From positions 88,053 to 152,052 of the IMG/VR virus record IMGVR_UViG_3300022689_000474: a stretch of DNA of 64,000 nt, one strand, 5' to 3'. Below the pieces are notes generated by a model. That model made no database searches, was not told the origin of the DNA, and saw nothing but the letters and a program-made list of their open reading frames with translations. Shown here in pieces: positions 19,076 to 37,978 of this stretch. Each line of letters opens with the position of its first letter. Within the stretch, counting starts at the first letter, position 1. The DNA comes from a virus. A program made the position numbers and the translations under genes.

Positions 19076-19086
19076 ATTTAATTATC

Positions 19087-20228: not shown

Positions 20229-20306
20229 TTTATTCTTTTTCCTCTATTTATAAATATCTAAAAGTGTATTATTTAAAAAGTAGATATTTCTATATCTCTA
20301 TATAAC

Positions 20307-20927: not shown

Positions 20928-20952
20928 TACATTAATATCTTATTGACTTAAT

Positions 20953-23900
20953 ATGTACTTTTCTAATATATCAAATAAGAATCAATTATTCTCTCGTAGT
21001 ACTTTATTTAACTCTTCTATGACTTCTGAGTTGAATAAAAAGTTCTCTTTTGATATTTATAATAATAAAAGTAATTATATTCCATCTGATTATATTAATA
21101 ATTTAAGTACAGATATAGATCCTATAAATAGTCTTATAAATGAATCTTCTCTTCAATCTAGACTCTCTGGTAATACTAATCAATATTCTATACCTCCATC
21201 TAGAAAGTTATTAAATACTTCTTTTAGTCTTCCTCTTGAGAATAGAGCCCCTTATTTAGGTGGTATATCTTCTAGTCTATATAACTCTTTAACTCAATCA
21301 AATTTAGGTAATATTGATACTTCTAATATTACTCTTACACCTTCTAATTATTCTTATGTTAAGTCTAATGTTGATTCTATAGATACTTCTAATATCGGTT
21401 TTAATAACTCATCAAAATATTCTTTCATAAAGTCAGATACATCTTCCATAGATACTTCTGGTATTAGTTTTAATACCCCTTCTAAACCTCATTCCTCTTC
21501 TATTAATGAGGCTATTAGATCTAATATTTCAGGAAGTTCTATAGTTATTCCCTCAAGTACTTATTTAGATCCTGTCTCTAGAAATCAAGCTTATAGAGAT
21601 ACACTTAAACCTCAAAGTGGTTATATTGATAGTACAACTAAAGGTTTTAATCAACATTTTAGAGATTTAATGAAGCCGAAGTATGTAGCTTTAAGAGAAG
21701 AAAGTATTCGGGAATATGTTGATACTATCAAACCACAAAGTGGTTATATGGAAGATGTAAGTAAAGATATACATTTAAGATATAAAGATAATAGTAAAAG
21801 GGGTATCTCAAGTATCAATAATAAAGACTTTTTAGAATATTTACCTTCTGAGGATATTAATTTTAGGAGTGCTAATAATCTAGAAGGGGTTAAAGAATAT
21901 AATCAATTAAATTTCAAATCTAAAACTAAAACTTCTGTCTCTTCATTAGCAAAGAAAGTTGAATTAACTCAAGCAGGTTTGGATAATTATCAAAGAGTCA
22001 TTCAGTTAGTATTCGACTTTGAGAATAGAAGTACAGAAGGAGTCAGACTTCCTCAATTAGCTTCTATGAGGGAAAAAAGATATGAAATGTTGGGGGCTGG
22101 TGCTTTATACGACCCAAGAAAGAATGTAGTTGCAGTAGATGACTCTATTATAGGGCAATTAAATAGAGGTAAACTTACAAAAGAATCTTTCGGCACTTTA
22201 GCTCATGAATTAGCACATTCTTATCAGAACCACTTTGGTAATACATGGAAAAAACAAAGAGCCTTTGAGAATAGAGTTTATTCTGCTGATATAGATGAAG
22301 TTAAACCAGGTAATTTAATTCAAGATAAATATACCAAAAGGGTAGTAAAGAGATCATTAGAATCTATAGCTCTGACTAAACAAAATATGCCGGAAGGTCT
22401 TACAAAAGAAAGAAGAGAAAGTGCTATCAGAAGATCTACTGCTAATGAGTTAGATGCATATTCATTAGAGGATAGAATTACTCGGAGTGTTGATGTAGAC
22501 CGAATATTTGATCCTGATTATAAACTTACTAAAGTTGGTTATCGTACTGAAGATACTATTAGAAAAGTAAGAGCTACAAGAGAATTTAATAAAAAATTAC
22601 TTACAGGTACTATAGGTACAACAGCAGTAGTAGGTTTAGGTGCTATTGCTTATTCATTATTTAGAAATAGAGAGGAGTCAAAATCTGAAGAGAGTAATAA
22701 TGATAAATTAGTGTTAGGAAGTATTGTAGGGTCTTCTTTCTTATTAGGAAGTATTAGACAGACTACATTTGGCCCTTATAAAACTTCAGAACATTTAGGA
22801 GAATCTTCAATTGCTCAAAGAAATTTAAAGAAAGCTACTAAAAAGGTATTTGATTATCTAGGGGTAGACTTTGATCTTTCTCAAACTCCTACAATTGCTG
22901 CTTTTGGACCTGATATTCCAAAAGGATTAGGAGGTGCTTATGTAGCAAAGTATAATGAATTGGTATTAAATCAAGAAATATATGGTGAACTAGTAAGTGG
23001 AAAAATCTCTAGAAATTCATTCTCCCTGTTGGCTCATGAATTAGTTCATGCTTATCAAGCTAATGTAGGTGGTAATATTCAGAAAAAACTTCTTTCTGAT
23101 GAAGAAGTAAATCTATTACCTAAAAAAATTCTTGATATGGCAAAGAAGTCTGCAGCAGTTCAACCGTATGAATCTAAAGAATATTGGGAATCTTTTAGAA
23201 AAGAAGTAGAAGCTTATGACGTTCAATTTCAAATATTAGCCAAAAAAAAGAAATATATAAGTCCTAAATATAGGCAGACACGAATTAATCCCGTTTCTAC
23301 ATCTATTGATCAACCTACTTCTCCTAAACCACCCTTTCAGCCCTCTTTACCTCCTACTAAGCCTAAGCCCCAATTACTTCTACCTCCGGCCAAGTCTATT
23401 AGTCCTAGATCTGTTAATCAATCTATTCTACCACCCGGATTAACCGTCCCATCTCCTATTTCTCCTTACCCTAGTCCTCCTGGTAAGTCTAAGCCCCAAT
23501 TGCTTCTCCCTCCTGCTAAGCCTATTAGTCCTAGATCTATTAGTCAATCCATTTTACCCCCCGGATTAACTATTCCATCTCCTATTTCTCCTTCACCCAG
23601 TCCCTCTCCTAAGTCTAAGCCCCAATTACTTCTACCTCCTGCTAAAGTTATAAGTCCTAGACCTGTTAGTCAATCTCTTCTACCCCCCGGATTAACGGTT
23701 CCATCTCCCATTTCTCCTCCCCCTAGTCCTTCCTCTAGTAGGTTGGGGAGTCAGTTACTTTTACCTCCTGCTAAAGCTATAAGTCCTAGACCTGTTAGTC
23801 AGTCCATTATACCTCCGGGACTAACTATCTCCTCTCCTATTTCTCCTGAAATTAGTTCTTCTCCAAGCCCCCCTTTTAGTCCAAGACTTAATAATCAACC

Positions 23901-26900
23901 ACTCTTACCTCCTGGGAAATCACTAGAAGAGGTAAATATGATAAAAGGTATTGGTCTTAAGAACATTATTCAGGGACAAAATCTTAGATCTTTAAGAAAT
24001 ACTTCTTTAGGAGCTATTGGGATAGGAATAGGTTTGGCTATAGGTATAAATCAATTTATTTATTCATCAAATAGAGAAATAAGTTCTAGAGAATTTAAAG
24101 AGATAGACGATTCCCTTGATAGAAGGATGAGAAGTGTTCGGATTAATAGAGAGCAAGAAAGAATGGAAATAGAGGCTGAAGAAAGGGTAAATAAAATGAT
24201 TGAAAATAGTATTACAGAAGAGGATAAAAGATTTATAGAAGAGCATTCTAACCAACTAAAAGAAAGACTACAATCATTAAATAGTGCTAGAGTCTCACAA
24301 GACAATACAGTCAACAGTACGTCTAGTAGTTCTAATGAACTTCCTTCAATTCTTCCAGAAAGAACAATATTTGGGAGTATTTCACCACCATTAGTTTTAT
24401 CTAATGAAATTGATCTATTAAATGAACCTTTAGACTCAAGGACTCAAACTAAAGTTGCTTCTGGATCTCAACAGTATGTTCAAAGACAAGAAGCATTAGC
24501 TCGAGGAGAGTTGTATACAGATGAAGGTGCATCTATTTCTATCGGGAAATGGACTCGTGAACCTATGACTAATAGATCTAATGAAGAATGGAAATCTCTT
24601 TTAAAGAAAGAATCAGACTTTGTTAGGTCATTAAATAGAGATGATCAAATAAATGTATTATTGGGTGATAGTCTAACTCAATGGTTTAGACCGTATCAAC
24701 TTCCTCAAAAAGAAGATACAACTTGGTTAAATCAAGGAATATCCGGTCAAAATATACAACAGATTGATCAAAGGATTGATATCCTTAAATCAATGAAAGG
24801 AGATAAAGTATTCATAATGGCCGGTATTAATGATTTAAGACAAGGAAGATCTGATAAAGAAATACTAGAAAGATACTCTTCTATGCTTGATAATGTCAAG
24901 AAGAGTGATGTTGCTGATGAAGTTGTAGTACAATCTATACTTCCCACAAGATTAGATAATTTACCTACTAATAGGATTAAGTCACTTAACTCTCAAATTA
25001 AAGCTATGGCGGAGAAGAGAGGAATGACTTATATTGATCTCCTCCCCCATTTCTTAAATGAAGAAGGTCGGTTAAAAAAAGAATATACTACTGATGGTAT
25101 ACATCTTTCTAGAAAAGGATATGACACTTGGTCTAAATTAATGTCTCAACATCTAAATGGAAAGGGAGAAGAACAAGATATTAATATTTTGGGGAATCAA
25201 GAGAAATTAGAAAGGAACACTAATCAGGCTGGAGAAAGTATTATACCTCCATCTAGTTCAGTAGCTAGACAGGCAGCTAAAAATAATAAAGATAAAGAAC
25301 AGACTCTTTCTTCAAGTGCTGGAGGTGGTGGTAGTAAACCACCTGGTACTCCTAGAACTTCTACTCCTCCTCCTCCTGAAGAACCTGATCCTCGAAAGAA
25401 AGCAGGACTATATACTAATATGGATGATCAGGAAAAGAAAAGTTGGGTGGATAGATTAAAGTCTGCTGTAGGGTTTATGAGAGATGAAAAAGTTGAAGAT
25501 GTTATTAAAGTAGTAGGTGTTACTGCTGGTATTACTGCTGGTATGTTAGGTACTATTAAAGGTGTAGAGGTTCTATTCTCTAATGTGAATAGAATCTTTA
25601 GTTCTTTGAGAAGTTCTATAGCTCTCTCTACTTCATCTAGTTCCTCCCCTGGTCAATCAGTTACTTCCCCTCAGCCTACCTCTTCTACTAGAACTCCAGG
25701 TCAACCAGCTGTCCCATCCCAATCCTCTTCTCCTACTACACCTGTATCTCAATCTACCCCTTCTACTAGAACTCCAGGTCAACCAACTGTCCCCTCCCAA
25801 CCCACTTCTCCTACTACACCTAGGGCTCCAGGTCAACCAGCTGTCCCATCCCAATCCTCTTCTCCTACTACAACTGCATCTCAATCTACCCCTTCTACTA
25901 GAACTCCCGGTCAACTAGTTATCCCATCTCAACCTTCTTCTCCTACTAGGGCTCCAGGTCAACCAGTTAGTCCACCTCAACCAAGAGGGCCTGCCCCTTC
26001 TTCTTCAGTAGGGAGTAACTTACCAAATAGATCTATAAGTAGTGGACCGCCTTCATCTCCATTATCAAGTACTCCTTCAGTAAGAACTAGAGGTAAAGGA
26101 GGTATGGGATTTATGTTAGGTGCAGGTCTTGTATCTTTAGGAGTAATGGGAGTTATTGGAGGAATAGCTGGTTATATGGTCTTTTCTCCTAGTGAAGATA
26201 GAACATCAGGAGAAAGGAGAGATGATTTCTATTCCAGTCCAGAAGTAGAACAAAGTAGAAAAGAAAGAGAAATAAGAGAAAGACAGTTAATAGAACAAGA
26301 GAAAAGAATTACGGGGAGACCAGATAGAAGTATAGATAGAGATACTAGTTTATTATTAAGGAATAGTAGAGAAAATAGGGACGGAAGTTCTGTAAGAAGG
26401 CAATTATCTTATAGAGAATATATGGCATTACAGACGGGAAGAAGTGAAGAACATTCATTACAACCTGAAATTAGTAGACCTTCTTCTTTATCTTTAGATG
26501 AACATTTAGCTATACAAAACCAAGGCCAAATCCGTAGAAGAGTTAGTAGAGATATAGATCAATCTAGAGGTATTAGAGCATCTGATTTATCATTTGAAGA
26601 GTTTTTAGAGATACAATCTGAAAGACCAGAGATAGAAAGAAGAAGAGAACGTATAAATAGGGGGGATAGTAGATCTAGAACTCTATCATTAGGAGAATAT
26701 CTATCTATGGGTGAAGAAAGAAGAGTATCTATAGGGAGTGATGATAATAGATCTAGAGCTAGATATCTAGCCATCATGGAAAGTAGTGAATCTTCTATAG
26801 ATGATAGGTATAGAAGAGCTAATAGATTAATAATAAATAGACCTGATAGGGAGTTAACGACTCCACTATTACCTCAAGGAAGTCATGAACCCCGTCCAGA

Positions 26901-29900
26901 AAAACACATTGACATGAGTTATGACGAGGAATATTTAGGAATATGGGAATTTGGTTCTAAAACTAGAGGTCTATTAAGTCAAATACAGAAAGGTACATTA
27001 TATGGAGGGTTTTATCAAAGGCCCTCAAGTCCTTATGGAAATATATATATTGATTTAGCTAGTAGAGAAGTTCCTACTATAATGCCTCCTACTAGTGGTA
27101 CTGGATATCTATATGAAAATAGGAAAAGATATATGGAAAAGTTAAGAGAAAGTGGAGTTCCAGTAGTACAGGTTGGTGACTTCCACGCTAAAGCATTTAT
27201 AGGTACTAATATTAAAGATGAAGAAATAGCTATAGTACTAACAGGTAATTTAACTAGATCTGCTTTAGAGTCTGGTGTTCCGGATGAGGCAATTATGACT
27301 AATGAATCTATAAAAGATAGATTTTTAAGAACTTTTTTCAATCAACGTCCAAAGTTTTATCAAAGTAATATTGGTTTAGTTGTAAAAGATTCAGAAAAGA
27401 TTGGTCAACTTAAAGAAATCTTATTTAATATACAGACAAAGGGGGTATCTTACTCAACAGAAGATTTTATAGTAGGGGGAGCTATGGGAAATAGTAGAGA
27501 GAGAATAGTAGATTTTATACTACAAAAGTCTAAAACTGGAGATGATATTAGTATTACTTCACCATATATTGATGACCCAGAAATAGTAAGAGCTTTAGTT
27601 CAAGCTAAACAACAATCTGGTGTTACTATTAGACTAATAACTTCTAAAGAAGGTTCTGGAATAAGAGCTTATTCACAAGCCATTTCAACACTTCAAGCAA
27701 GTGGTATAGAAGTATATGCTCCAAAGGGAACTCAGTCTTATTTACCTCATGAGAAGATGATACTTATAGGTAATGATTATATAGTAGGTTCTCATAACTT
27801 TACTTCTAAGGCTTCTGATAGACAAATAGAAATAAGTCTAATGGGTAATGACCCTAGAATAGCTTCTTTAATGCAAGCTGATTTTATCAGACAAATAGAA
27901 GAAGGTTATGTATCTCTTAAAGAAGGTTCGGGAGCTAGAAGATCTATGATGTTAGGTACCAGTCCTTTACTTAGTGGTTTATACGCAGGTAGTGATAAAG
28001 CTGGTACTCTTTTATTAGACCCTAATATGGGGGCTTCTTATTTCTATGGGAGAGCTTTATATAATAATCAACAAAGACAGGCTAGAGCTCATCATAGAGT
28101 TATAGATCAAGAGACTTCAGGTGTAGCTACAGCTATGTATAAAGCTGCATATCTAGCTAAATTGAATGAAGGGGAATTAATTCCACAACATAGTGATTTA
28201 GATAGAATACCAGGAATAGTACAACAGTATGATAGAGAGTTATATACACCTGGTATAGGTGCAATATTAAATGAAAAAGTCTTTATGAGATTAGGTCTAG
28301 GAAGATTATATAAAGATGAGCTAGGATTCTTACCATCAGCGATGGGAGCTTTAGGTTCAGTCTTAGATAAAACTTATTTATATTTAAATCCCAATGCTAA
28401 CTTTCCAGGAATTACGCATTATTTTAAGGAAATGGATATTAAAGATTCTTCATATAGAGATAGACCTGCACCTGTAGGATTATTTGAGGCGGGGTTAAGT
28501 GAATTAGCTTTCTTAGGACAAGCATCAGCTCAAGGTATATTATTCTATATGATTGTAGGAGAACCTATATCTATGTTCTTATCAGAGACTATAAAGAATG
28601 ATGTAGAAAGAGTTATTTCTAATAGTCTTAGTACAGATTTAAATCAATTCTATTCAACTTCATCTAGACTTCATAGGAGGGCAAACTTATCAATGGCTAG
28701 TGCTTTTAAAAGTCCCCTATCAGCTAGGATGGAAGTATTATCTACGATGGATAATTTAAGGAAGATAGATGCTGAATACTTTGGTGCTGAGAATCCGGGC
28801 CTTAGTATTTATCATTTCTCTTCTATGTATTTGAGAGGGAGAAGTGGAATATTATTGAATGAAGTTATGAAACCATTCTTAATGGAAATAGTTAATCCAT
28901 ATGATCCTATGGATGTACAAAGTAATAGAGGTTTTTCTAATGTTATAGATAGATTTATAGAAGAAGTTAGTAGACCTGTAGGATTAGCAGCTATAAGTCC
29001 TTCTGATCCTCATTTAGATTCAATAAAAATAACTAGAACAGATGTACAAAGGGGATTATATAAACAAGGGTTTTCTAGGAATCAAGTACAAAGTATGAAG
29101 ATAGATGAAATAATAGGATATAAATATGCTAGAGAACAATTTGTTAATAAAGCGAGAGATTTCTTAGATACATCTACATTTAGATCTTCTTTAATATCAA
29201 ATAGAGTAAATAGCTTCAAGACTTTTATTGATAGATTTGGAAATTATCAAGATTTTAATACTAAACAATTAGCTAATCTATTTAGTCAATTAGAAATAAT
29301 AGAGAATAGTGTAGATCCTACAGATGTAGATGTAATAGAAGATATACATATGATAAGAAGGAGATTGATGCAAATAGGTGCTCAGATAGAAGATCCAGCT
29401 AAAAGATTATCTAGAAATAGGAAAGCTGATATCAGTCTTACTAAAGAAGGAAGGTTAATAGGTGATATCGACTTTGAAATTACTAATGAAGGAATAGATA
29501 GATCTTCATCTATAGCTAGAAGATTACAAGATATATTAGATGAGATACCTTTAAATCCTCTTAACTGGAGAATGTTTAATAAGTATCGTGCTATTAGAGG
29601 TATAACGGGTCAAGACTTAGAAAGTGAAGGTTATTTAAGAATAACGACTACAGGACAACAAGATACTGGAAGAGTTATTCCAAGAGTAAGAACTGTAGGA
29701 GAATTATTTTCTTTCACTGATTTAACTCAAGTAATGAGGGAGATATTATTTGGAAGAGGAGGTTTTTCTCAACATTTAGCCAGAGCGGAAGTATTTAGTG
29801 ATAGAGAAAGATTAATAAGATTAAATAGAGTTTCTCAAGTAAGTAACTTTGAAGATCTAACCTTTAAAGATGCTAGTAGTATTTGGTTTGATAGAAAGAT

Positions 29901-32900
29901 AGGTTATGCAGGTAAGATGGCTGTAGATAAAATTCATACTGTATGGAATGCTACTATTGGTTTTGCTTATGAATCTTCTAAAAGAGTTATAGATAAATAT
30001 AGATATTTACAAGGTTCATTATTGGCACCTTTTGGAATAGGTAGAGAAAAAGGATTATTAAGGGGTAGTAAGGCCTTAAAGGATATGGAATATTACTTAA
30101 TGAATATGGAAGATGAAACTACAGGTCTTAAAGCTATAAGTTGGGGTGATGATTTAGATGAAATAAAAGAAGCAATAAAGTCTTTAGAACAAGAAGCAAT
30201 AGAAGAGTTTAGAAGTTTAAGTAATACTGAAAGATTGACTAAATATGGTTCTTTAAATGAATCAGAGTATATAGATAGATATGTTAGTGAAAATATACAG
30301 AGAGCTACTAGTAGTATAGATCCAACTGCTAGAAGATTGAATTGGTTAGATGAAAATGTTGTAAAAAGTCTTGCAGAAGCTGAAGAAGTTAGAAGTAGAT
30401 TTATGAATAATCCCGAGAGACCTTTTGACTTTGTAGAAATACAAGAAAGGTTAAGAGCAGAGACTTTAGGTTTATTTAGAATGGGGACTGTTAAAGATGA
30501 AGCTTTAAAGAATAGAATGGTTCGTATGAGTCCGGGTATAGGAAGAGATGTAACTGGAAAGATGACTAAAGGTACTTTAACTACTACTGCTTTATCTATA
30601 TCAGTATTATCATCTTTAATATTATCTGATTTATTCCAAAGTACTTCTGGAGTTAGTCTATTTACTCAATTGGGTTTCTCTCTATTTAGTGGAGGTGGTC
30701 CTATAGGAAGATTAATGGGTAATGAACAAGGAGAATTGGGTATCAATACACATTTTGAAGGAGATAGATTATTTCCTGATATACCTGGTCTAGGTAGAGT
30801 TGGAACTACATTATTAACTACAGCAGGTACACTATATGCTGCTCATGTAATAGGTACATCTGCTTTAAGGGCTGAAGCTATAAATTATAGTTTCACGACT
30901 GATTTCATGTTTCAACAATTAAAGTCGGAGACTGGAACTGATATTGTTTTATCAGCAGCTAGAGGATCAAATGAAGCGGATATCTCATTAAGACAAAAAG
31001 TATTAAGTGGAGAAATAAAGAAAGGAAGGGAGTTATCAGATTTTATAGATAACAATCCTACTAGGACTATTAGTATGAGAATGAAGTATAAAGATACATT
31101 TGAAGCTTCACTGTCTCTAATGAAAAAGGGAGATATGTTAAATATCCGTTCTATGAGATTTAGAGGCAATACATGGTTAAATACTATGATTGCCTATGCA
31201 GGCTTATCAATTGGTGGTAAAGCTTTAGTCTCTTCTACTTCTTCTTTACTCAATCATATGAGGGAATCTCAAGGGAGTCTCGATCCTTTAGCTTTTGGTG
31301 TTGCTGGTGCATTGATTGGATCTAAAATGACTAGAAGTTTTGGTGGAGGTCTTGCCGGTCTTTTAATAGGTGGATTAGGTTCTTATGTTATGAATAAGAT
31401 GGGTGTTAAAGTATTTAATCTTGGAGATCCTGGTTCGGTTGTAGATAATCAAGGGGCTACTCTATTAGGAGAGTTATCCGACTTTAGGAATTCTGTAATG
31501 GCCAACTTTGATAAAAGTTCTAGAATTGAATTGATGGCAGCTTTAGTATCTCAAGGAATAGAATCACCTTATGGTTTATTTAAACAAGAAGCTTCAGGTA
31601 CTGATGTTAAAGTAGTAGCTAAACAGGTTACTTCTCCTATAATACAGTTCTTTATGGCAAAAAGAACTAAGGGACAATATACTGATTATTCAGGAAAGGT
31701 AGTTGATCCAGGTATAACTACATATTCTTTAGGTATACAAGGACCGCCTATAACAGGGATGTCAGTTGGTATCCAATTACCATTTAAGATATTAAAAGAT
31801 AGACCGGAGAATAATAGTTCTGGATATATGAATAGAGGCAGTAGAAATTTTAATCTTGTATATAATGATGAAACAGATATTTTAGATTATTTATATGGAG
31901 TAGGAATGATAGCTACATCTGCTCAGATGTTAAGTTATTCATTAAGAACTATTGGTGCTATAGGTTCTCCTTTAACTCCATCAGCTGGTAGTACTTTAGG
32001 ACAATATAGAGAAACTGCCGATAATTTATTTACAGAATCAGGTAAAAGGATAGGTAAATTTGGTACCGCAGTAGAAGATGTTGGAATGATATTACCTAAT
32101 ACTATTCATAGAGTAGCTCAATATATCTTCTCTTCTGATTATGATGTCTATAATCAAATAGAACTAAGAATGAAAAGGAGATATGAGATGTCTAAAGGTA
32201 TAGAGGGTGGAGATCTTACATCTGTTAGATCTTTTAATAGATCTAGAATGTTAATTAGATATACATCTAAAGCTGCTTTTGGGGCTTTTGTATTAAATTT
32301 TGGGGCTGGTCTAGTACAAGATGATGATAAATTTCAAGAGAATTCTTTAGTACTAAATATGAGTGGTGTTGGTTTGGGTGTGGCTGCTGGAGTAGGTCAA
32401 GATTATCTAGCTGGTGTATCTAGAGCTATGAGAGTATCTAATGCTGGTAGAGCTCTACGTATGACTAGATTACGTAAAAATTTACTTCCTTATGCTTTAT
32501 CTGGACTTGTGGGATTTCATCTTACTGATGATAGATTTGGGGTTTTTACTGGGATGAGTAATGAATATGTTAAACAACAAAAACATGATGAATATTATTC
32601 TTATCATAGGGAAGCAGTTATAGGTACTTATGCTGTAGCTATGGGTACATTAGGTGCTACATTTGGAAGAATGGGTATGGATTCAGGTCAAGTATTAGAA
32701 GAATATTCAAGAGCCCTTAATTCTTTAAATGAATTAGAAGATATACAACAGGCAAATACAGCAGGAGGGGGAGTATTAAGAAGAGTAAGAAGAGCATATC
32801 AAGCTCATCGAGTAGAAGAATTAGAAAAAGAAGCTCAACAGATAGTAGATTACTTCAGACATAGAAGTAAACAAATAGAAGAGACATTTGATTTAGTATC

Positions 32901-35900
32901 TTCAGCTTATCCTAATGTAGCCCCTGAGACATTAAGAGAATTCCATATTAATAAGGCAAGACAGATTATAGAAGATACGGGGTCTATGTCAGCTAGGGAT
33001 ATAATGAATAGACAGGATGAAGCTACAGCATTAATACAACATGTAAATAGATCTAGGGGTGCGTATATTGATGCAAGGTTATCTAGTAGAAGATTTTCAG
33101 GTAGATTAATGAAAGGTATGATAGGAGTTCCAATAGCTACACATATAATAGGATCTTTATTACATTCTATTAACCCTGAAGTTTTTAATGCTAATAAGTT
33201 CTATGATTGGTTGGAGAGTAGAGGTACTAATTTTGATGCTAATGCTCCATTTATGAAAACAAGAAATGTTATAGCAGATGCTATTAGAGCTATAACATTT
33301 ACTGATAGATCAATAGACTCTGGTATTAGTTTAGATCAAACTTTTAGGAGTGCAGCAGCTTCAGGAGGTTTTTATCAACCTGTATCTCATGAAAAGTTAT
33401 TAATACGACAGACTGGATATGCTAGGTCAATGACCAAGTTATTCAGAGACCTATCTGAGATAGCTATTCTTGATGATGTAAATCCATTTATAAGTGGTCC
33501 TTTAGGTGCAGGTGCTTCTATTAGGAGAGGAGATAGAGGTACAGTATTAACACCTTATATACAAATACAAACATCTGGAAGTGATATATCAACAGCTTCA
33601 TACTCTATGAGTTCAAGATTCTTCTTTAGAAATGTATTACAAGGGAATAATGATTTAGTATTTGAGATACAAAATGCTATGAGGATGAAGAATGAATTTA
33701 TGAAGAAAGGTTTAGATCCTTCAGTAGTAATGAGAAGAACAGCTTTAAATATATTAATGGCTACTTCATCATTACAACCTAGAAAGAAACCAAGAAGAGC
33801 TTCTAGATTATCAGACAGTCAATTATCAAGTCTAGCTTCGGATACTTTATTAATGGCATCATTAAAGGAAAGGATGGCAATACAGAAACATAGTAATTAT
33901 CAACCAGTAGAGTCAATAGTGACTCAAATGTTAATAGAACAAATGATGCCAACTCATAAGTATTTAGATAATATGTTAATGAATGTATTATCTCCAGAGA
34001 ATGCTAAGAAGTTAGGTATAGGTGTAGGTAAGAATTTGGCAGCATATATGATGGGAGATCCTTATTACTTATTATCTAGAAAGATAAATATGATGGGTAT
34101 AAAATTCTTTGGAGATCAACCTGGTGGGGTAAGAGGTAGAGATATATCTAGTCAAGCTAGAGATTTTCCTGATTTATTTGGAGAGTATAGTTCTAAACAT
34201 TTAGAGACATATACTATGGAAAATAGTAAGAGATCTCCTTTCTTAGAATCATTAAGTGATAATAGTAGTCGTATATTTGGAGCTCTACCAGCACCTGTTA
34301 GTTTAATGTTAGGTTTGACTCTAGGTCTTAGTATTACTTCTAGACTTATTGATTTTGCCAATGTTATTAAAGGAGGACATGAAATAAGTGAAGGTCAAAA
34401 GATGTTAAGAGAAATATCTAGTGAAAGATGGTTCACTAATGCTCCTGAATCAGATAAGTTAAGGAATGTATGGGTCAGTATGAATTATCCCCAAATAGGA
34501 AGTTCAGAGCCTCTTGTAGCTGGAGCAAAAACATTACCAATCTTAAGTAAAGGATCTTTTCACTTCTTATTAAATCCTGCCTCTCATGATTCTTATAAAG
34601 TATCTCAATCTTTAAGAACTGGTTTATCAGAAGTACAGAAACAATTAGATGAAGCTAGATTAAATTTTAGAGGTCAATCAGTAAATATATTTGAATATTT
34701 ACAGATAAATAAAATAAAAGAATTAGAGGCCATATTAGGTGGAGTACCTAATCAAAGTCATATACAAGCTATGACAGTATATGATAATTCAGGTAATAGG
34801 GTATATGGTATTGATACAAATAAAGCTTGGATGGATAACTTAAATGATGCTAGAGATTTACTTATGACTTCATCCAAGGGTATGGAACCTGAAACTGCTA
34901 GAAGGATGAAAGCTGTAATATCTGCTATGGAGACTGAGATTAAATCTCGTCATATAACTAATTTAAGTGATACTATTTTGGATCAAGTAACAGAACACTT
35001 TACTAAAGAAATAGATCATTATATTGATCAATATGTAGATTCTTTAATGAATAATAAGGTTCAGATAAGTAGAAATGATTATAGAAGCATGTTGGAAAAA
35101 GCGAATATATCTGATATAGAAAATAGATTAGATAAATATTTTCCTTCTGCTCCTGGAGGTGGACCTATTAAATCAACTGTTGATGTTCCTGTAGCTGCAT
35201 TTTTTATACCTAATGCCTCACCTGAAGAGATATTAGGAGTTAAAACAGAACAAGATTTATACAAATTAATTGAGGCGAGAGGAGAAGCTACTGGTCAGTT
35301 AGATGCTATATCTACAACTGATAGTTCAGGTGTTAGAGTAGCAGATATGAGAACTAAACTTAAGTCGGCTGCAGCTAATTCTATTAGAGAAGAAGTAGCT
35401 AGAGAGTTAAAATTATTTAGTAATGACCCTAAGAAATTATCTAGACTCAGTTCTGGTCTCACAGGATCTATAAAACATATTGCTTCTTCAGTAACTAATA
35501 AAATATTCTTAAATGCATTAGGAGGGAGGACAGGAGAAGTTGAGAAGTCATTCTTTTCAGTCTTACGTCATCATTGGGGAGGTTTAGGAGTTACTCCTTC
35601 AGCAGATACTAAAAGAAGTCTAATAAATAATCTTAGGTCATTCATGTCTAGGATGACTAAAGGTTCAGCCCCTTATATTGCAGAAGATGAAATAGAAGTG
35701 GCTAAATTCCATTCATCAGTTTCTGTAGAGAGAGCTAAAAGAAAAGCTTTATCTTCTGTTGAATTACCAGAAGAAATGGCAGAATTAGAAGCGAGGAAAG
35801 CAGCAGGAGATCCAACAGCTTTAGATATAGCTAGAAAAACAGAAGAAATAAATTTAAGGAAAGCTCCTTTATTAACTAAAGCAAGTAGAGGTCTTCAAAG

Positions 35901-37407
35901 TTTCTGGGATGTGGCTACATCTATTTTTGATATTATTGAAGCTATAGATATATTTTCATCTTTCTCACGATTAAGTAGTGCTAGTAGAAGTAATATGACT
36001 AGAGCTCAAAAGAAATTAATTGCATCTGAAGTAGGTACTACAATTAATAACTTTACTCAAGGTATGGCATTTATGGTTGCTATGAATACTATAAATATGG
36101 GTATTCAAGCTAGTGCTTCTGCTATAGGTTGGAAAGCTCTAGCTCCCATTTTATTAATAGCAGGTGTTATAGCAGTAGTAGGTGGAGTCACTTATATGAA
36201 AGATCAGGAGAATAGGGAGAGTTGGAGTGGATTCTGGAAAGGGGTAAGTGAATTCTGGGGAGATACTATCTTCAATTATACAGAGAAGGCTGAGAAATGG
36301 GGAGGAGGTGGTAGAAAGACAGATGCAATACTTATGGGAACAGGTGGTGCTTTAGGAGGTTTAGCTTTATCTGCATCTGCATTAAGTATGGCTCCAGGTA
36401 CATTAATGGGTGTATTTGGAGGAGTATCATTATTAGCTGCTGGTCAATTTTTATTAGCAGGTTTAGCTATAGGTGCTGGTTTAGGAGTAGCAGCAGCATT
36501 AATAGCTCCAGAAGCTACATCAAATCTATTTGATAATTTAGTAAATAGTTTATCAGATATAACTATAGGAGGATTTCCTATATTTGGAATGTTTTTAACG
36601 AAACCAGGTAGTGGTTTATATATGAAAGGATACTCAGAACCTTCTTTAGGTGTAAGTAGAACCACTCCATTTATGGTAGGAGGTGTAGAACAAGTTATAG
36701 CGGCAGATTATAGAAGATATCTACTAGCTGCCAAAGATATAACGGGTGGAGATGCAGCAGGTCTATTCTTAAGTACTACTATATATGGATCATTACCAAC
36801 AAGAGGTAATGATGTAGTATCAAGATACGGAAAAACAATGAGTATAAGACCTGGAGGTGTAGTAGATCCAGTAATAAGGAGAGAAATACAATTAAGAGGT
36901 CAACACTTTAATCAAAGTGTTATAGGAAGACAAATGTGGGTGGCAATGTTAAGTAATGCTACTAATTATAGAGCTATCAAACAGGCTGATTATAGAGATT
37001 CTATAAGGTCAGCTACTTTAAGTATGGAGGCAATGAAAGAAGATAATTCTCCAGAAGTAGAAAGTAAGAACTTAAAATATAAAAACAAATTAAGAAAGAG
37101 GAATCCAGAAATTAGAGGTGAAATTATAGGTCAATATGTAGATGATGTAGGTAAAGCTATAGATAGAGCGGAGAAACAAAAAGAAGAACCACTATTATTA
37201 AGTTTTGATAAAGAGTCATTAAATAATACGAATGTATTATCAAAGGACTATATAGTAAATGGATTGGATAGAAAGAGTACAAATAGTAATATTCCAGTAG
37301 TCAGTTCTACAACTCAAGGACATATAGTAAGTAAAGTACCTAATCCAGAAGGGAGTTTAAACGATACAATATTAGTAAGTCCTTATAGTGAATATGATAA
37401 TGTCTGA
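20953..37407 (+). CDS. 5,484-aa multi-domain protein (2 zincin metallopeptidases, SGNH hydrolase, PLD-family domain, many membrane segments); putative ejected or tape-measure-like virion protein
   Basis: HELAH (22204) and HELVH (23035), each with a downstream E-x-(D/E)-AY. GDS (24664), NQGISG, GIND and DGIH (25093) mark the SGNH domain. HAK..TGN (27184) and HEK..GSHN (27748) mark the PLD domain. Gly/Ala-rich hydrophobic helices occur throughout. Confidence 0.75.
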   Translation: MYFSNISNKNQLFSRSTLFNSSMTSELNKKFSFDIYNNKSNYIPSDYINNLSTDIDPINSLINESSLQSRLSGNTNQYSIPPSRKLLNTSFSLPLENRAPYLGGISSSLYNSLTQSNLGNIDTSNITLTPSNYSYVKSNVDSIDTSNIGFNNSSKYSFIKSDTSSIDTSGISFNTPSKPHSSSINEAIRSNISGSSIVIPSSTYLDPVSRNQAYRDTLKPQSGYIDSTTKGFNQHFRDLMKPKYVALREESIREYVDTIKPQSGYMEDVSKDIHLRYKDNSKRGISSINNKDFLEYLPSEDINFRSANNLEGVKEYNQLNFKSKTKTSVSSLAKKVELTQAGLDNYQRVIQLVFDFENRSTEGVRLPQLASMREKRYEMLGAGALYDPRKNVVAVDDSIIGQLNRGKLTKESFGTLAHELAHSYQNHFGNTWKKQRAFENRVYSADIDEVKPGNLIQDKYTKRVVKRSLESIALTKQNMPEGLTKERRESAIRRSTANELDAYSLEDRITRSVDVDRIFDPDYKLTKVGYRTEDTIRKVRATREFNKKLLTGTIGTTAVVGLGAIAYSLFRNREESKSEESNNDKLVLGSIVGSSFLLGSIRQTTFGPYKTSEHLGESSIAQRNLKKATKKVFDYLGVDFDLSQTPTIAAFGPDIPKGLGGAYVAKYNELVLNQEIYGELVSGKISRNSFSLLAHELVHAYQANVGGNIQKKLLSDEEVNLLPKKILDMAKKSAAVQPYESKEYWESFRKEVEAYDVQFQILAKKKKYISPKYRQTRINPVSTSIDQPTSPKPPFQPSLPPTKPKPQLLLPPAKSISPRSVNQSILPPGLTVPSPISPYPSPPGKSKPQLLLPPAKPISPRSISQSILPPGLTIPSPISPSPSPSPKSKPQLLLPPAKVISPRPVSQSLLPPGLTVPSPISPPPSPSSSRLGSQLLLPPAKAISPRPVSQSIIPPGLTISSPISPEISSSPSPPFSPRLNNQPLLPPGKSLEEVNMIKGIGLKNIIQGQNLRSLRNTSLGAIGIGIGLAIGINQFIYSSNREISSREFKEIDDSLDRRMRSVRINREQERMEIEAEERVNKMIENSITEEDKRFIEEHSNQLKERLQSLNSARVSQDNTVNSTSSSSNELPSILPERTIFGSISPPLVLSNEIDLLNEPLDSRTQTKVASGSQQYVQRQEALARGELYTDEGASISIGKWTREPMTNRSNEEWKSLLKKESDFVRSLNRDDQINVLLGDSLTQWFRPYQLPQKEDTTWLNQGISGQNIQQIDQRIDILKSMKGDKVFIMAGINDLRQGRSDKEILERYSSMLDNVKKSDVADEVVVQSILPTRLDNLPTNRIKSLNSQIKAMAEKRGMTYIDLLPHFLNEEGRLKKEYTTDGIHLSRKGYDTWSKLMSQHLNGKGEEQDINILGNQEKLERNTNQAGESIIPPSSSVARQAAKNNKDKEQTLSSSAGGGGSKPPGTPRTSTPPPPEEPDPRKKAGLYTNMDDQEKKSWVDRLKSAVGFMRDEKVEDVIKVVGVTAGITAGMLGTIKGVEVLFSNVNRIFSSLRSSIALSTSSSSSPGQSVTSPQPTSSTRTPGQPAVPSQSSSPTTPVSQSTPSTRTPGQPTVPSQPTSPTTPRAPGQPAVPSQSSSPTTTASQSTPSTRTPGQLVIPSQPSSPTRAPGQPVSPPQPRGPAPSSSVGSNLPNRSISSGPPSSPLSSTPSVRTRGKGGMGFMLGAGLVSLGVMGVIGGIAGYMVFSPSEDRTSGERRDDFYSSPEVEQSRKEREIRERQLIEQEKRITGRPDRSIDRDTSLLLRNSRENRDGSSVRRQLSYREYMALQTGRSEEHSLQPEISRPSSLSLDEHLAIQNQGQIRRRVSRDIDQSRGIRASDLSFEEFLEIQSERPEIERRRERINRGDSRSRTLSLGEYLSMGEERRVSIGSDDNRSRARYLAIMESSESSIDDRYRRANRLIINRPDRELTTPLLPQGSHEPRPEKHIDMSYDEEYLGIWEFGSKTRGLLSQIQKGTLYGGFYQRPSSPYGNIYIDLASREVPTIMPPTSGTGYLYENRKRYMEKLRESGVPVVQVGDFHAKAFIGTNIKDEEIAIVLTGNLTRSALESGVPDEAIMTNESIKDRFLRTFFNQRPKFYQSNIGLVVKDSEKIGQLKEILFNIQTKGVSYSTEDFIVGGAMGNSRERIVDFILQKSKTGDDISITSPYIDDPEIVRALVQAKQQSGVTIRLITSKEGSGIRAYSQAISTLQASGIEVYAPKGTQSYLPHEKMILIGNDYIVGSHNFTSKASDRQIEISLMGNDPRIASLMQADFIRQIEEGYVSLKEGSGARRSMMLGTSPLLSGLYAGSDKAGTLLLDPNMGASYFYGRALYNNQQRQARAHHRVIDQETSGVATAMYKAAYLAKLNEGELIPQHSDLDRIPGIVQQYDRELYTPGIGAILNEKVFMRLGLGRLYKDELGFLPSAMGALGSVLDKTYLYLNPNANFPGITHYFKEMDIKDSSYRDRPAPVGLFEAGLSELAFLGQASAQGILFYMIVGEPISMFLSETIKNDVERVISNSLSTDLNQFYSTSSRLHRRANLSMASAFKSPLSARMEVLSTMDNLRKIDAEYFGAENPGLSIYHFSSMYLRGRSGILLNEVMKPFLMEIVNPYDPMDVQSNRGFSNVIDRFIEEVSRPVGLAAISPSDPHLDSIKITRTDVQRGLYKQGFSRNQVQSMKIDEIIGYKYAREQFVNKARDFLDTSTFRSSLISNRVNSFKTFIDRFGNYQDFNTKQLANLFSQLEIIENSVDPTDVDVIEDIHMIRRRLMQIGAQIEDPAKRLSRNRKADISLTKEGRLIGDIDFEITNEGIDRSSSIARRLQDILDEIPLNPLNWRMFNKYRAIRGITGQDLESEGYLRITTTGQQDTGRVIPRVRTVGELFSFTDLTQVMREILFGRGGFSQHLARAEVFSDRERLIRLNRVSQVSNFEDLTFKDASSIWFDRKIGYAGKMAVDKIHTVWNATIGFAYESSKRVIDKYRYLQGSLLAPFGIGREKGLLRGSKALKDMEYYLMNMEDETTGLKAISWGDDLDEIKEAIKSLEQEAIEEFRSLSNTERLTKYGSLNESEYIDRYVSENIQRATSSIDPTARRLNWLDENVVKSLAEAEEVRSRFMNNPERPFDFVEIQERLRAETLGLFRMGTVKDEALKNRMVRMSPGIGRDVTGKMTKGTLTTTALSISVLSSLILSDLFQSTSGVSLFTQLGFSLFSGGGPIGRLMGNEQGELGINTHFEGDRLFPDIPGLGRVGTTLLTTAGTLYAAHVIGTSALRAEAINYSFTTDFMFQQLKSETGTDIVLSAARGSNEADISLRQKVLSGEIKKGRELSDFIDNNPTRTISMRMKYKDTFEASLSLMKKGDMLNIRSMRFRGNTWLNTMIAYAGLSIGGKALVSSTSSLLNHMRESQGSLDPLAFGVAGALIGSKMTRSFGGGLAGLLIGGLGSYVMNKMGVKVFNLGDPGSVVDNQGATLLGELSDFRNSVMANFDKSSRIELMAALVSQGIESPYGLFKQEASGTDVKVVAKQVTSPIIQFFMAKRTKGQYTDYSGKVVDPGITTYSLGIQGPPITGMSVGIQLPFKILKDRPENNSSGYMNRGSRNFNLVYNDETDILDYLYGVGMIATSAQMLSYSLRTIGAIGSPLTPSAGSTLGQYRETADNLFTESGKRIGKFGTAVEDVGMILPNTIHRVAQYIFSSDYDVYNQIELRMKRRYEMSKGIEGGDLTSVRSFNRSRMLIRYTSKAAFGAFVLNFGAGLVQDDDKFQENSLVLNMSGVGLGVAAGVGQDYLAGVSRAMRVSNAGRALRMTRLRKNLLPYALSGLVGFHLTDDRFGVFTGMSNEYVKQQKHDEYYSYHREAVIGTYAVAMGTLGATFGRMGMDSGQVLEEYSRALNSLNELEDIQQANTAGGGVLRRVRRAYQAHRVEELEKEAQQIVDYFRHRSKQIEETFDLVSSAYPNVAPETLREFHINKARQIIEDTGSMSARDIMNRQDEATALIQHVNRSRGAYIDARLSSRRFSGRLMKGMIGVPIATHIIGSLLHSINPEVFNANKFYDWLESRGTNFDANAPFMKTRNVIADAIRAITFTDRSIDSGISLDQTFRSAAASGGFYQPVSHEKLLIRQTGYARSMTKLFRDLSEIAILDDVNPFISGPLGAGASIRRGDRGTVLTPYIQIQTSGSDISTASYSMSSRFFFRNVLQGNNDLVFEIQNAMRMKNEFMKKGLDPSVVMRRTALNILMATSSLQPRKKPRRASRLSDSQLSSLASDTLLMASLKERMAIQKHSNYQPVESIVTQMLIEQMMPTHKYLDNMLMNVLSPENAKKLGIGVGKNLAAYMMGDPYYLLSRKINMMGIKFFGDQPGGVRGRDISSQARDFPDLFGEYSSKHLETYTMENSKRSPFLESLSDNSSRIFGALPAPVSLMLGLTLGLSITSRLIDFANVIKGGHEISEGQKMLREISSERWFTNAPESDKLRNVWVSMNYPQIGSSEPLVAGAKTLPILSKGSFHFLLNPASHDSYKVSQSLRTGLSEVQKQLDEARLNFRGQSVNIFEYLQINKIKELEAILGGVPNQSHIQAMTVYDNSGNRVYGIDTNKAWMDNLNDARDLLMTSSKGMEPETARRMKAVISAMETEIKSRHITNLSDTILDQVTEHFTKEIDHYIDQYVDSLMNNKVQISRNDYRSMLEKANISDIENRLDKYFPSAPGGGPIKSTVDVPVAAFFIPNASPEEILGVKTEQDLYKLIEARGEATGQLDAISTTDSSGVRVADMRTKLKSAAANSIREEVARELKLFSNDPKKLSRLSSGLTGSIKHIASSVTNKIFLNALGGRTGEVEKSFFSVLRHHWGGLGVTPSADTKRSLINNLRSFMSRMTKGSAPYIAEDEIEVAKFHSSVSVERAKRKALSSVELPEEMAELEARKAAGDPTALDIARKTEEINLRKAPLLTKASRGLQSFWDVATSIFDIIEAIDIFSSFSRLSSASRSNMTRAQKKLIASEVGTTINNFTQGMAFMVAMNTINMGIQASASAIGWKALAPILLIAGVIAVVGGVTYMKDQENRESWSGFWKGVSEFWGDTIFNYTEKAEKWGGGGRKTDAILMGTGGALGGLALSASALSMAPGTLMGVFGGVSLLAAGQFLLAGLAIGAGLGVAAALIAPEATSNLFDNLVNSLSDITIGGFPIFGMFLTKPGSGLYMKGYSEPSLGVSRTTPFMVGGVEQVIAADYRRYLLAAKDITGGDAAGLFLSTTIYGSLPTRGNDVVSRYGKTMSIRPGGVVDPVIRREIQLRGQHFNQSVIGRQMWVAMLSNATNYRAIKQADYRDSIRSATLSMEAMKEDNSPEVESKNLKYKNKLRKRNPEIRGEIIGQYVDDVGKAIDRAEKQKEEPLLLSFDKESLNNTNVLSKDYIVNGLDRKSTNSNIPVVSSTTQGHIVSKVPNPEGSLNDTILVSPYSEYDNV
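23365..23915 (+). repeat. 126-bp (42-aa) Pro/Ser-rich tandem repeat, 4 copies plus a partial
   Basis: KPQLLLPPAK.ISPR..SQS.LPPGLT.PSPISP units start at 23365, 23491 and 23617; a diverged fourth starts near 23746. Confidence 0.9.
25645..25990 (+). repeat. PGQ-containing Pro/Ser/Thr repeats including a 132-bp duplication
   Basis: CCAGGTCAACCAGCTGTCCCATCCCAATCCTCTTCTCCTACTACA at 25696 and 25828; about six PGQ units. Confidence 0.85.
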
Positions 37408-37942: not shown

Positions 37943-37943
37943 T
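37935..37943 (+). promoter_or_regulatory. Extended -10 promoter element
   Basis: TGTTATAAT 35 bp upstream of the ORF at 37979. Confidence 0.4.
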
Positions 37944-37978
37944 ATAGTATAAACAGTTTTTTATATAAATATCAATCA

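Follow-up and report, generated by a model that had tools for sequence, protein, structure and literature searches.

The window, a 64,000-nucleotide stretch of viral DNA, carries on its plus strand a single giant ORF, as the earlier note had described, with an ATG start and an unbroken translation, set between a small conserved gene that follows the terminase and a gene for a resolvase. The features of the locus are as follows.

14233-18117, plus strand: large terminase with an intein, the conserved upstream neighbour of the family
18104-19075, plus strand: conserved gene of 250-320 aa between the terminase and the giant, present in all loci examined
20953-37407, plus strand: giant ORF (P0001), 5,484 aa, ATG start, no internal stop, no Cys
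20953-21954, plus strand: Ser/Asn-rich leader (aa 1-334; 21% Ser, 12% Asn) with short repeats of the [YF]RDxxKP type, common only to P0002
21955-22587, plus strand: HExxH module Z1 (aa 335-545), HELAH at aa 418 (nt 22204), downstream Glu helix motif ELDAY
22597-22761, plus strand: hydrophobic hairpin between Z1 and Z2 (aa 549-567 and ~585-603)
22768-23292, plus strand: HExxH module Z2 (aa 606-780), HELVH at aa 695 (nt 23035), downstream EVEAY; paralogue of Z1
23350-23847, plus strand: Pro-rich tandem repeat, 126 bp x 3.9 copies, 42-aa units
24004-24060, plus strand: hydrophobic helix (aa 1018-1036), then a highly charged stretch
24550-25182, plus strand: SGNH/GDSL hydrolase (Pfam match aa 1237-1391) with Ser1240, Gly1291/Asn1293 and Asp1381/His1384
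25501-25557, plus strand: hydrophobic helix (aa 1517-1535)
25676-25982, plus strand: P/S/T/Q-rich 'PGQ' tandem repeats with periods of 132, 78 and 48 bp
26110-26166, plus strand: hydrophobic helix (aa 1720-1738)
26185-26832, plus strand: Arg-rich region (aa 1745-1960; 18% Arg) with four LS[LFY]xE[YFH][LM] motifs at aa 1818, 1846, 1879 and 1911
27070-27927, plus strand: two-lobed PLD/HKD domain (aa ~2040-2325) of Nuc-type fold with HxK at aa 2078 and 2266; the family's 'nuclease slot'
27940-37404, plus strand: family core (aa 2330-5484) with conserved blocks A (27940-29112), B (31270-32052), C (33250-33972) and D (35770-37032)
37388-37942, plus strand: RuvC-like Holliday-junction resolvase, whose GTG start overlaps the last 20 nt of the giant

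At ~33% GC, simple arithmetic puts the chance of 5,484 stop-free codons near e^-425. The concern that the ORF might be an assembly chimera is cleared by an independent relative of 5,089 aa that is collinear with the giant, and the closest relative, P0002, has an identical N-terminus (MYFSNISNKN). We conclude that one real gene of a Ma-LMM01-like (Microcystis-phage-like) cyanophage encodes the giant. A promoter and terminator scan around its start gave a site count no higher than in shuffled sequences.

When 1.84 billion protein representatives were searched exhaustively, only ~60 clusters of relatives were returned, all of them giants (2,250 to 6,072 aa), and a profile of the core recovers no family other than the giant's own. 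The PHROG match is phrog_29513 (E 2.4e-20). Ma-LMM01 gp120 (YP_851134, 2,898 aa; PHROG 29513) aligns with the giant in three collinear BLASTP segments (E 3e-25, 4e-22 and 3e-11), and the protein of Microcoleus phage My-WqHQDG (WOL31340, 4,151 aa) in six. Both are annotated 'hypothetical protein', and both share with the giant the whole core in collinear order, the position after the terminase and the absence of Cys, and WOL31340 also has a PLD in the same slot; unlike the giant, they have neither the leader nor the HExxH pair nor the SGNH hydrolase. A core of ~2,500-3,150 aa is kept in all ~60 relatives, and the family plan, as read from the sequences, is a predicted non-specific nuclease domain directly before this nearly Cys-free core. 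The genome has another Cys-free giant (G000 16006-30522; PLD and DFDGD), and paralogy between the two was rejected, the best BLASTP E being 0.46 and the score of that protein against the 55-member family HMM being negative. The idea that the giant is a virion RNA polymerase was also rejected, since the DxDxD motif is absent from the protein.

The slot ahead of the core is occupied in the giant by a PLD domain (Pfam PLDc_2, PF13091, aa 2194-2313; E 3e-21, 76.3 bits against a cut-off of 27). Its two HxK motifs, already noticed in the first reading of the sequence, are HAKAFIG...TGN at aa 2078 and HEKMILIGNDYIVGSHN at aa 2266, and the pair follows the pattern HxK(x)4[D/G](x)nG[ST]xN; the His is conserved in most PLD-bearing relatives. 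Nuc is the closest solved structure by sequence (E 1.4e-6) and also by fold: an AlphaFold model, in which the first (N-) lobe has low confidence, matches Nuc 1bys with a VIA Z of 18.3 (rmsd 2.2, 147 residues aligned) and NucT with a Z of 16.7, and Foldseek finds Nuc at E 1.7e-8 and TMt 0.84. Nuc of plasmid pKM101 (1byr/1bys) and H. pylori NucT are single-lobe PLD nucleases that have the HxK...GSxN motif in common with the giant, but the giant has two lobes per chain, as do PLD3/4 and poxvirus F13 (fold-match ranks 4 and 8), and its domain is fused into a far longer protein. Among 56 full-length relatives, the slot holds a PLD in 23-24, an SNase-like domain in 25 and an Endonuclease_NS domain in 4 (best match E 6.5e-34), and never two nuclease types in one relative; P0002 has no recognisable nuclease, and gp120 no Pfam-recognisable domain. 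Because the PLD is swapped for SNase or Endonuclease_NS, the conserved activity of the slot is predicted, indirectly, to be cleavage of nucleic acid and not of lipid, which keeps the nucleic-acid side of the earlier proposal of 'lipids or DNA' and drops the other. The note had also asked whether homologues keep the PLD and the core and swap N-terminal modules; the core is kept and the N-terminus is swapped, but the PLD itself proves to be swappable.

Ahead of the family plan, this lineage has added ~1,950 residues, comprising the leader, Z1 and Z2, the SGNH hydrolase, Pro- and PST-rich linkers and five to six hydrophobic helices. The leader, Z1, Z2 and SGNH recur only in P0002 among the ~60 relatives, and other long relatives have unrelated N-terminal extensions, likewise with hydrophobic helices. 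The leader, both repeat arrays, the Arg-rich stretch and the hydrophobic helices were all recovered in the order that the earlier note had given, and the analysis supports its picture of a cassette of enzymes, spaced by membrane-type helices and low-complexity linkers, that precedes a long conserved stretch. So is the SGNH hydrolase with its intact Ser/Asp/His: the domain matches Pfam Lipase_GDSL_2 (PF13472) at E 6e-23 (82.6 bits, cut-off 32.9) and keeps GDS at 1238-1240, GIND at 1291-1294 and DGIH at 1381-1384. Its best solved relatives are of the lysophospholipase L1 / sialate O-acetylesterase kind (7pzg and 6njc, E ~2e-21), with 171 residues aligned to 7pzg, and it is predicted to be an esterase of the O-acetylesterase/lysophospholipase type.

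Z1 and Z2 are probably zincins, a putative assignment that rests on motif, paralogy and sub-threshold matches and is weaker than first claimed. BLASTP identifies them as paralogues (E 3e-12), ELDAY lies ~80 residues past HELAH and EVEAY ~60 past HELVH, and a four-way alignment shows the HExxH...Glu pattern to be kept between Z1 and Z2 and in P0002, where the first HExxH is dead (HKIAH). None of the zincin family profiles matched an HExxH module above its cut-off (for Z1, SprT-like 13 bits against 25.6, DUF6782 12.9 against 27 and DUF6055 15 against 27; for Z2, XopG 21 against 150); Hvo_1808 is another sub-threshold match of zincin type for Z1. The HExxH region has no sequence match in the PDB and no shorter homologues among 5.8 billion proteins. 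Membership of Z2 in eCIS_core/DUF4157 (PF13699) was rejected at 15.4 bits, or 13.3 in the genome scan, against a cut-off of 22; similar sub-threshold scores for eCIS_core occur in 10 of 14 control genomes.

PLD/Nuc, SNase and Endonuclease_NS are classically secreted, periplasmic or extracellular-type enzymes, Pro/Ser/Thr-rich linkers such as those of the giant are typical of extracellular enzymes, and the known hosts of the relatives' phages form mucilage or mats. Together with a sialate O-acetylesterase among the nearest solved relatives of the SGNH domain, this would suit an external virion fibre whose enzymes break down the sheath or mucilage of cyanobacterial cells, with its DNA, polysaccharide and protein. 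We consider such a fibre very unlikely, because the giant has at least seven membrane-type helices (further segments lie at aa 4441-4459, 5062-5080 and 5166-5184), and strongly hydrophobic, Gly/Ala-rich segments are ill-suited to an exposed soluble protein. In this phage, lambda and T7, the external tail and fibre proteins contain Cys; the gene lies outside the tail-fibre region, and the N-terminal enzymes are missing from nearly all relatives.

The core itself had been described as ~3,000 aa of helical sequence, and the two parts that were modelled (AlphaFold, pLDDT 65 and 61, moderate confidence) are indeed mostly helical, but they also contain two beta-sheet inserts. Block D holds a C-terminal cluster of strongly hydrophobic segments, and such a cluster is found in all family members. 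Foldseek against the PDB, VIA-align (48,161 chains) and BFVD recognised no known fold for the core in the two models, and outside the PLD the fold searches returned generic helical bundles or hairpins with Z below 8. The core profile gave only chance syntaxin matches to PDB sequences (E 0.014), two ESM-Atlas searches gave nothing above 0.88, and self-BLAST found no internal repeats in the core.

Tape measures often carry hydrophobic Gly/Ala-rich segments and enzyme domains, and the giant resembles enzymatic tape measures in being long, largely helical in its modelled core and, like lambda gpH, Cys-free. It could be, in these contractile-tailed phages, a tape-measure or other tail-lumen protein whose helical core fills the tube and whose hydrophobic C-terminal block and enzymes act on the envelope at exit, the more so as the tail-module ORFs scanned gave no recognised tape-measure family and the sole tail-module protein with tape-measure-like PHROG matches is a 692-aa triple lysin. 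A 1,581-aa tail-module ORF, the alternative candidate, has no homologue in the phage database. We nevertheless judge this role decidedly unlikely on genomic position and lack of a family match. The sheath and baseplate genes lie at 51-72 kb of G000 and the giant at 109-125 kb, which places it outside the tail module, where a tape measure would sit between tube/chaperone and baseplate genes, ~40 kb away and after the terminase, a position that is conserved; neither Pfam nor PHROG profiles gave the giant a tape-measure match, and the models are bundles and beta-sheets with no single long helix. Length may be unrelated to that of the tail as well: family members range from 2,250 to 6,072 aa, and the tail of Ma-LMM01 is ~209 nm long. 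At 1.5 Å per residue, the 2,898-aa Ma-LMM01 protein would extend to ~435 nm, against the 260 nm tail of the relative MaMV-DH01 (PMC9927357).

No feature of the gene's surroundings is better conserved than its position after the terminase. All relatives with known context belong to Ma-LMM01-like cyanophages and adjoin the terminase, and the order terminase, small gene, giant is found at every locus examined, a set that leaves out the Endonuclease_NS-type and short SNase-type members. To the right lie genes for recombination and replication (the resolvase, a PD-(D/E)XK exonuclease and a primase); a resolvase homologue is also found directly downstream of the relative P0003, and RNase HII and helicases are among the neighbours too. 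The Ma-LMM01 homologue belongs with the terminase to expression class B5, a middle class and not an early one (PMC5780444, Table S3). This middle-class expression, the overlapping resolvase and its neighbours, and the charges flanking the helices, which on our reading of the sequence match ordinary positive-inside insertion, would all fit a non-virion protein that is produced during infection, sits anchored in the membrane and coordinates or supplies phage DNA metabolism or packaging, for example through the breakdown of host nucleic acid there. We hold this to be unlikely, given the linkage to the terminase and the classically secreted or periplasmic nature of all three slot nucleases. Furthermore, a cytoplasmic protein has no obvious reason to shun Cys over ~200,000 family residues.

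The avoidance of Cys is extreme. The giant has 0 in 5,484 residues, against 1.07% in the phage's other ORFs and 1-2.4% in its replication enzymes, and the whole family has 12 in 199,145. In a benchmark of five proteins, N4 vRNAP (0/3,500), T7 gp15 (0/747), T7 gp16 (0/1,318) and lambda gpH (0/853) are likewise Cys-free, and P1 DarB, a head protein proven to be ejected, contains 9 Cys, so the absence of Cys is suggestive only. In the same comparator phages, polymerases and primases have 1.1-2.3% Cys, and portal, capsid and tail proteins 0.5-1%. Because Cys avoidance is family-wide, and because of the terminase linkage and expression with the terminase class, we tentatively favour, at somewhat less than an even chance, a protein that travels in the virion, is ejected and becomes inserted in membranes.

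Several known systems bear on the ejection reading. Polyvalent proteins such as P1 DarB and the N4 virion RNA polymerase are, like the giant, multi-enzyme giants encoded near packaging or head genes, and the N4 enzyme shares its lack of Cys. Zincin-like HExxH...E modules are often repeated in polyvalent proteins and interspersed among other domains (Iyer et al. 2017, PMC5512222). The giant, too, combines several unrelated effector domains (SGNH, PLD and two HExxH modules) in a gene that adjoins the terminase. However, the polyvalent-protein paper (PMC5512222) makes no mention of PLD, SGNH, transmembrane segments or cyanophages, and ~60% of the giant is a conserved core without a recognised fold and not a string of effectors. 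The MPTase-PolyVal and LPD families gave no match above threshold in the giant, LPD23 being a weak language-model lead and nothing more.

T7 gp14, gp15 and gp16 exit the capsid via the tail and span the host envelope. Like the giant, they are helical and Cys-free or nearly so, and gp16 is annotated 'internal virion protein with endolysin domain', that is, an envelope-active enzyme. T7 differs in being a podovirus with three ejectosome proteins encoded within the structural block, whereas the giant is one polypeptide of four times the size that carries a nuclease; neither in sequence nor in fold was any similarity to the T7 ejectosome proteins found. Our literature search found no virion proteome or structure for any family member.

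If the giant is ejected, it would be synthesised together with the structural and packaging gene products, packed into the virion and, when infection begins, pushed out unfolded through the tail, so that Cys would be a liability. Its hydrophobic segments would insert into host membranes, placing the nuclease and core within reach of host nucleic acid. The N-terminal enzymes would be lineage-specific accessories that may act on envelope esters and peptides or process the chain itself. Besides the Cys of P1 DarB and the lack of a recognised fold for the core, other considerations weigh against ejection: the recombination and replication neighbours on the right would also suit an intracellular DNA-handling role, a non-specific nuclease beside packaged DNA would need to be silenced, for which we have no candidate mechanism, and P0002 combines a dead first HExxH with the lack of a recognisable nuclease. 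A more ambitious version, which we regard as rather doubtful, is that Ma-LMM01-like cyanophages inject an undescribed giant, Cys-free, nuclease-headed protein whose core is a new envelope-spanning or DNA-escorting machine and whose catalytic head was exchanged for unrelated non-specific nucleases on two or more occasions. In this lineage the chain would thread the envelope on five to six helices, with the proteases and esterase facing one side and the nuclease the opposite one.

Phages of the Ma-LMM01 type control bloom-forming Microcystis and mat-forming Microcoleus, and more than 80% of their genes are without a function. One of their largest 'hypothetical proteins' now belongs to a defined family with three testable properties: a nuclease head in three interchangeable folds, near-total exclusion of Cys and fixed adjacency to the terminase. 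If the giant is not ejected, it would be an instructive exception to the Cys rule for ejected proteins. If it is, it would rank with the largest phage proteins known to be injected, and be a natural case of enzyme cassettes added to a delivery scaffold.

The giant ORF of this Ma-LMM01-like cyanophage (window 20953..37407, + strand) translates without a stop over 5,484 codons, the window being the last 64 kb of the 152-kb IMG/VR virus record. The landmarks that the earlier note had read from the nucleotide sequence are all found, at about the positions claimed.

Landmarks of the giant protein (aa) and of its ORF (window positions, + strand)
N-terminus: S/N-rich leader
aa 418: HELAH
aa 549, about 585, 1018, 1517, 1720, 4441, 5062 and 5166: hydrophobic segments
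aa 695: HELVH
23350-23847: Pro-rich repeat, 126 bp x 3.9
aa 1237-1391: SGNH domain (Pfam Lipase_GDSL_2, E 6e-23), with GDS, GIND and DGIH intact
25676-25982: PGQ-type repeats
directly after the last N-terminal helix: Arg-rich stretch
aa 2194-2313: PLD (PLDc_2, E 3e-21), with HxK motifs at aa 2078 and 2266

An assembly chimera, the alternative that the note had raised, is unlikely because P0002, an independent metagenomic protein of 5,089 aa, begins with the same ten residues and is collinear with the giant from leader to C-terminus, with 57-73% identity across the common parts. We conclude that the giant is a real gene, in which a lineage-specific N-terminal cassette has been placed on a family plan. 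Short motifs recur in both proteins: [YF]RDxxKP-type motifs in the leader (window 21592-21680, aa 214-242), which may be docking or cleavage signals, and, within the Arg-rich region, four evenly spaced copies of LS[LFY]xE[YFH][LM] (window 26404-26703, aa 1818-1917), with LRLEEYL, LSLEEYL and LSLSEYL as comparable copies in P0002. Across window 22001-38000, G+C is 0.32-0.37 in the giant ORF versus 0.22-0.29 in downstream genes, and the ORF has a strongly positive GC skew; both probably reflect its Gly/Ala/Pro/Arg-rich composition.

The two HExxH modules, Z1 and Z2, are paralogues (E 3e-12) that align over ~180 columns, from an N-terminal helix-like stretch through a Gly-rich strand region and [TL]LAHEL.H.YQ to E[LV][DE]AY, a motif likewise conserved and 60-80 residues downstream of the HExxH motif. 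This is the HExxH...E layout of the metallopeptidases of polyvalent proteins (Iyer et al., PMC5512222). A family profile search gave no family at the cut-off, and the sub-threshold matches (eCIS_core, SprT-like, DUF6782, DUF6055, XopG) were HExxH families exclusively; a search for shorter homologues of the region found none. The two zincins proposed from the sequence are probably zincin-like modules of an undescribed clade. We rejected eCIS_core, which scored 13.3 bits in a genome-restricted search in which control genomes score similarly. P0002 has HKIAH in its first module in place of HELAH and has lost the catalytic Glu; one of the two modules is apparently dispensable as an enzyme. The predicted SGNH hydrolase was borne out with its catalytic set complete, and its nearest solved relatives (7pzg and 6njc, E about 2e-21; entry names lysophospholipase L1 and sialate O-acetylesterase) make an O-acetyl or lipid ester the likely substrate. 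Enzymes of these types would suit an external matrix-degrading fibre, but the hydrophobic helices are at odds with such a protein, and we regard it as very unlikely.

A phage-database search with the C-terminal 3,000 residues hit nothing beyond Microcystis phages (Ma-LMM01 and MaMV strains) and Microcoleus phage My-WqHQDG, each match being a 'hypothetical protein' of 2,898 aa (gp120) or 4,151 aa just downstream of the terminase; the corresponding family, PHROG 29513, is unannotated. A profile of core residues 2330-3529 retrieved only 60 clusters from 1.84 billion representative proteins, with lengths of 2,250-6,072 aa apart from a few short fragments. Searching pieces of the giant against this set detected core blocks A (2330-2720), B (3440-3700), C (4100-4340) and D (4940-5360) in 36-59 members, while the leader, the SGNH domain and the two HExxH modules matched P0002 alone. 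The C-terminal hydrophobic cluster is present in all members, and other long members carry unrelated, Pfam-silent N-terminal extensions with 3-7 hydrophobic segments. A partial protein of 732 aa, P0006, matches the core at 62% identity; it is deposited under Arthrospira platensis SPKY2, from a 2.2-kb contig, and annotated as hypothetical, which gives a clue to the hosts of close relatives or else to phage DNA in that culture.

Two AlphaFold models were built on 28-sequence alignments. The first (aa 1960-2720) has a mean pLDDT of 65, with an all-helical block A at about 75; the second (aa 3440-4340, mean 61.5) has long helices and, at the sites of the most conserved core motifs, beta-sheets (aa 3551-3637 and 4186-4218). 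For the core, neither Foldseek (PDB and BFVD) nor VIA-align (48,161 chains) returned more than generic helical hairpins or bundles, with Z below 8, and sequence-profile search of PDB and an ESM Atlas search returned nothing.

The modelled PLD lobe (pLDDT 80-94) has nucleases as its nearest structures, namely Nuc (VIA Z 18.3, rmsd 2.2 over 147 residues; Foldseek E 1.7e-8, TMt 0.84), NucT (VIA Z 16.7) and Zucchini (VIA Z 15). Nuc is again the best solved relative by sequence, and both lobes of the two-lobed PLDs F13 and PLD4 align with the giant's PLD. We examined the position directly ahead of core block A in 56 full-length relatives. It holds a PLD in 23 of them, as in the giant itself, an SNase-like domain in 25, and Endonuclease_NS (PF01223; best E 6.5e-34, with DRGH in the relative P0053) in four; none has two types, and the four with no recognisable nuclease include two that begin within the core. 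That one slot is filled by three unrelated nuclease folds points to non-specific nucleic-acid cleavage as its probable selected function. Of 'lipids or DNA', the substrates first suggested for the PLD, the Nuc-like fold and the swapped-in nucleases favour nucleic acid and not lipids. As to whether homologues keep PLD and core while exchanging N-terminal modules, a check suggested in the note, the core is kept and the modules differ, but the PLD is itself exchanged. Turnover of the slot is fast, since that of P0002, the closest relative, matches no recognisable nuclease or PLD. P0002 has 73% core identity, yet is without the Pro-rich repeat, HELAH and a recognisable PLD; accessory parts therefore turn over very rapidly.

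The giant contains no cysteine, against about 58 expected from the 1.07% average of the phage's other ORFs. The phage's replication enzymes have 1-2.4% and its large tail-module proteins mostly 0.1-0.7%, a few 1-2%. Throughout the family, 62 sequences hold 12 Cys in 199,145 residues. We compared a small set of proteins known to exit the virion via the tail.

Cysteines per residues in the benchmark proteins
N4 vRNAP: 0/3,500
T7 gp15: 0/747
T7 gp16: 0/1,318
T7 gp14: 1/196
lambda gpH: 0/853

Polymerases and primases of these phages have 1.1-2.3% Cys, and portal, capsid and tail proteins 0.5-1%. Because the benchmark is near zero but P1 DarB, also ejected, has 9 Cys in 2,255 residues, total exclusion is typical, not universal, of ejected or tail-lumen proteins in this small benchmark. 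A tape-measure or tail-lumen protein would carry the same signature; the giant's gene position is wrong for one and the family's lengths would probably fit one poorly, and we consider this improbable. The same phage has another giant ORF upstream of the window (G000:C1:16006-30522, + strand; 4,838 aa; Ma-LMM01 homologue gp080), which adjoins the head genes, is likewise Cys-free and has a PLD, HxK at aa 423 and DFDGD at aa 3522. BLAST and profile comparison found no similarity between the two giants, and apart from the lack of Cys and the PLD we regard them as unrelated. A 692-aa tail-module protein, also upstream of the window (G000:C1:60716-62794, + strand), combines three domains that hydrolyse the cell wall: GH108 lysozyme, M23 peptidase and VanY carboxypeptidase.

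The loci seen share one gene order: terminase, in many cases intein-bearing, then a conserved gene of 250-320 aa, giant, small gene, PD-(D/E)XK exonuclease and DnaG primase. Here an intein that carries a LAGLIDADG homing-endonuclease domain splits the 1,294-aa large terminase (window 14233-18117, + strand; Pfam Intein_splicing, LAGLIDADG_3); Intein_splicing also matches the terminases of two relatives. The 323-aa gene that follows (window 18104-19075, + strand) is unusually Cys-rich (11 Cys, 3.4%), has a counterpart of 250-283 aa at the locus of every relative (E 1e-7 to 1e-26) and no match in Pfam and PHROG searches; its product may act together with the terminase or with the giant. DUF7178 and RNase HII genes (window 19668-20927, - strand) separate the terminase block from the giant, only 25 nt from the giant's start, and RNase HII holds the same position ahead of the relative P0003. 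A RuvC-like Holliday-junction resolvase has a GTG start that overlaps the giant ORF's final 20 nt (window 37388-37407), and its homologue comes after P0003 with no gap, which suggests coupled translation of giant and resolvase.

Ma-LMM01 gp120 belongs to expression class B5 ('middle'), with the terminase and most structural genes and outside the ten early genes (PMC5780444, Table S3), so the giant must arrive with the particle if it is active at the start of infection. Neighbours and timing would also agree with a membrane-anchored DNA-handling protein inside the infected cell, which leaves the Cys exclusion unexplained and which we think unlikely. Our preferred reading, to which we give slightly less than an even chance as a whole, is that the giant would be packaged in the virion and leave through the tail as an unfolded chain, its hydrophobic segments entering host membranes and its nuclease being carried to the nucleic acid of the host. 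In this reading the envelope would be the target of the added HExxH modules and esterase, unless these serve to process the chain; as speculation, the membrane potential could pull inward the Arg-rich segment.

Among described concepts, polyvalent proteins (P1 DarB, N4 vRNAP) come closest to the giant: they too are very large, have zincin-like modules interspersed in the chain and are linked to packaging. A survey of these proteins includes no cyanophage examples and no PLD, SGNH or membrane helices (PMC5512222), and most of the giant's chain is conserved core and not effectors. In the family plan a nuclease head precedes a Cys-free core and a C-terminal hydrophobic cluster, and the gene is linked to the terminase; the interchangeability of that head and the exclusion of cysteine throughout the family are new, testable facts.
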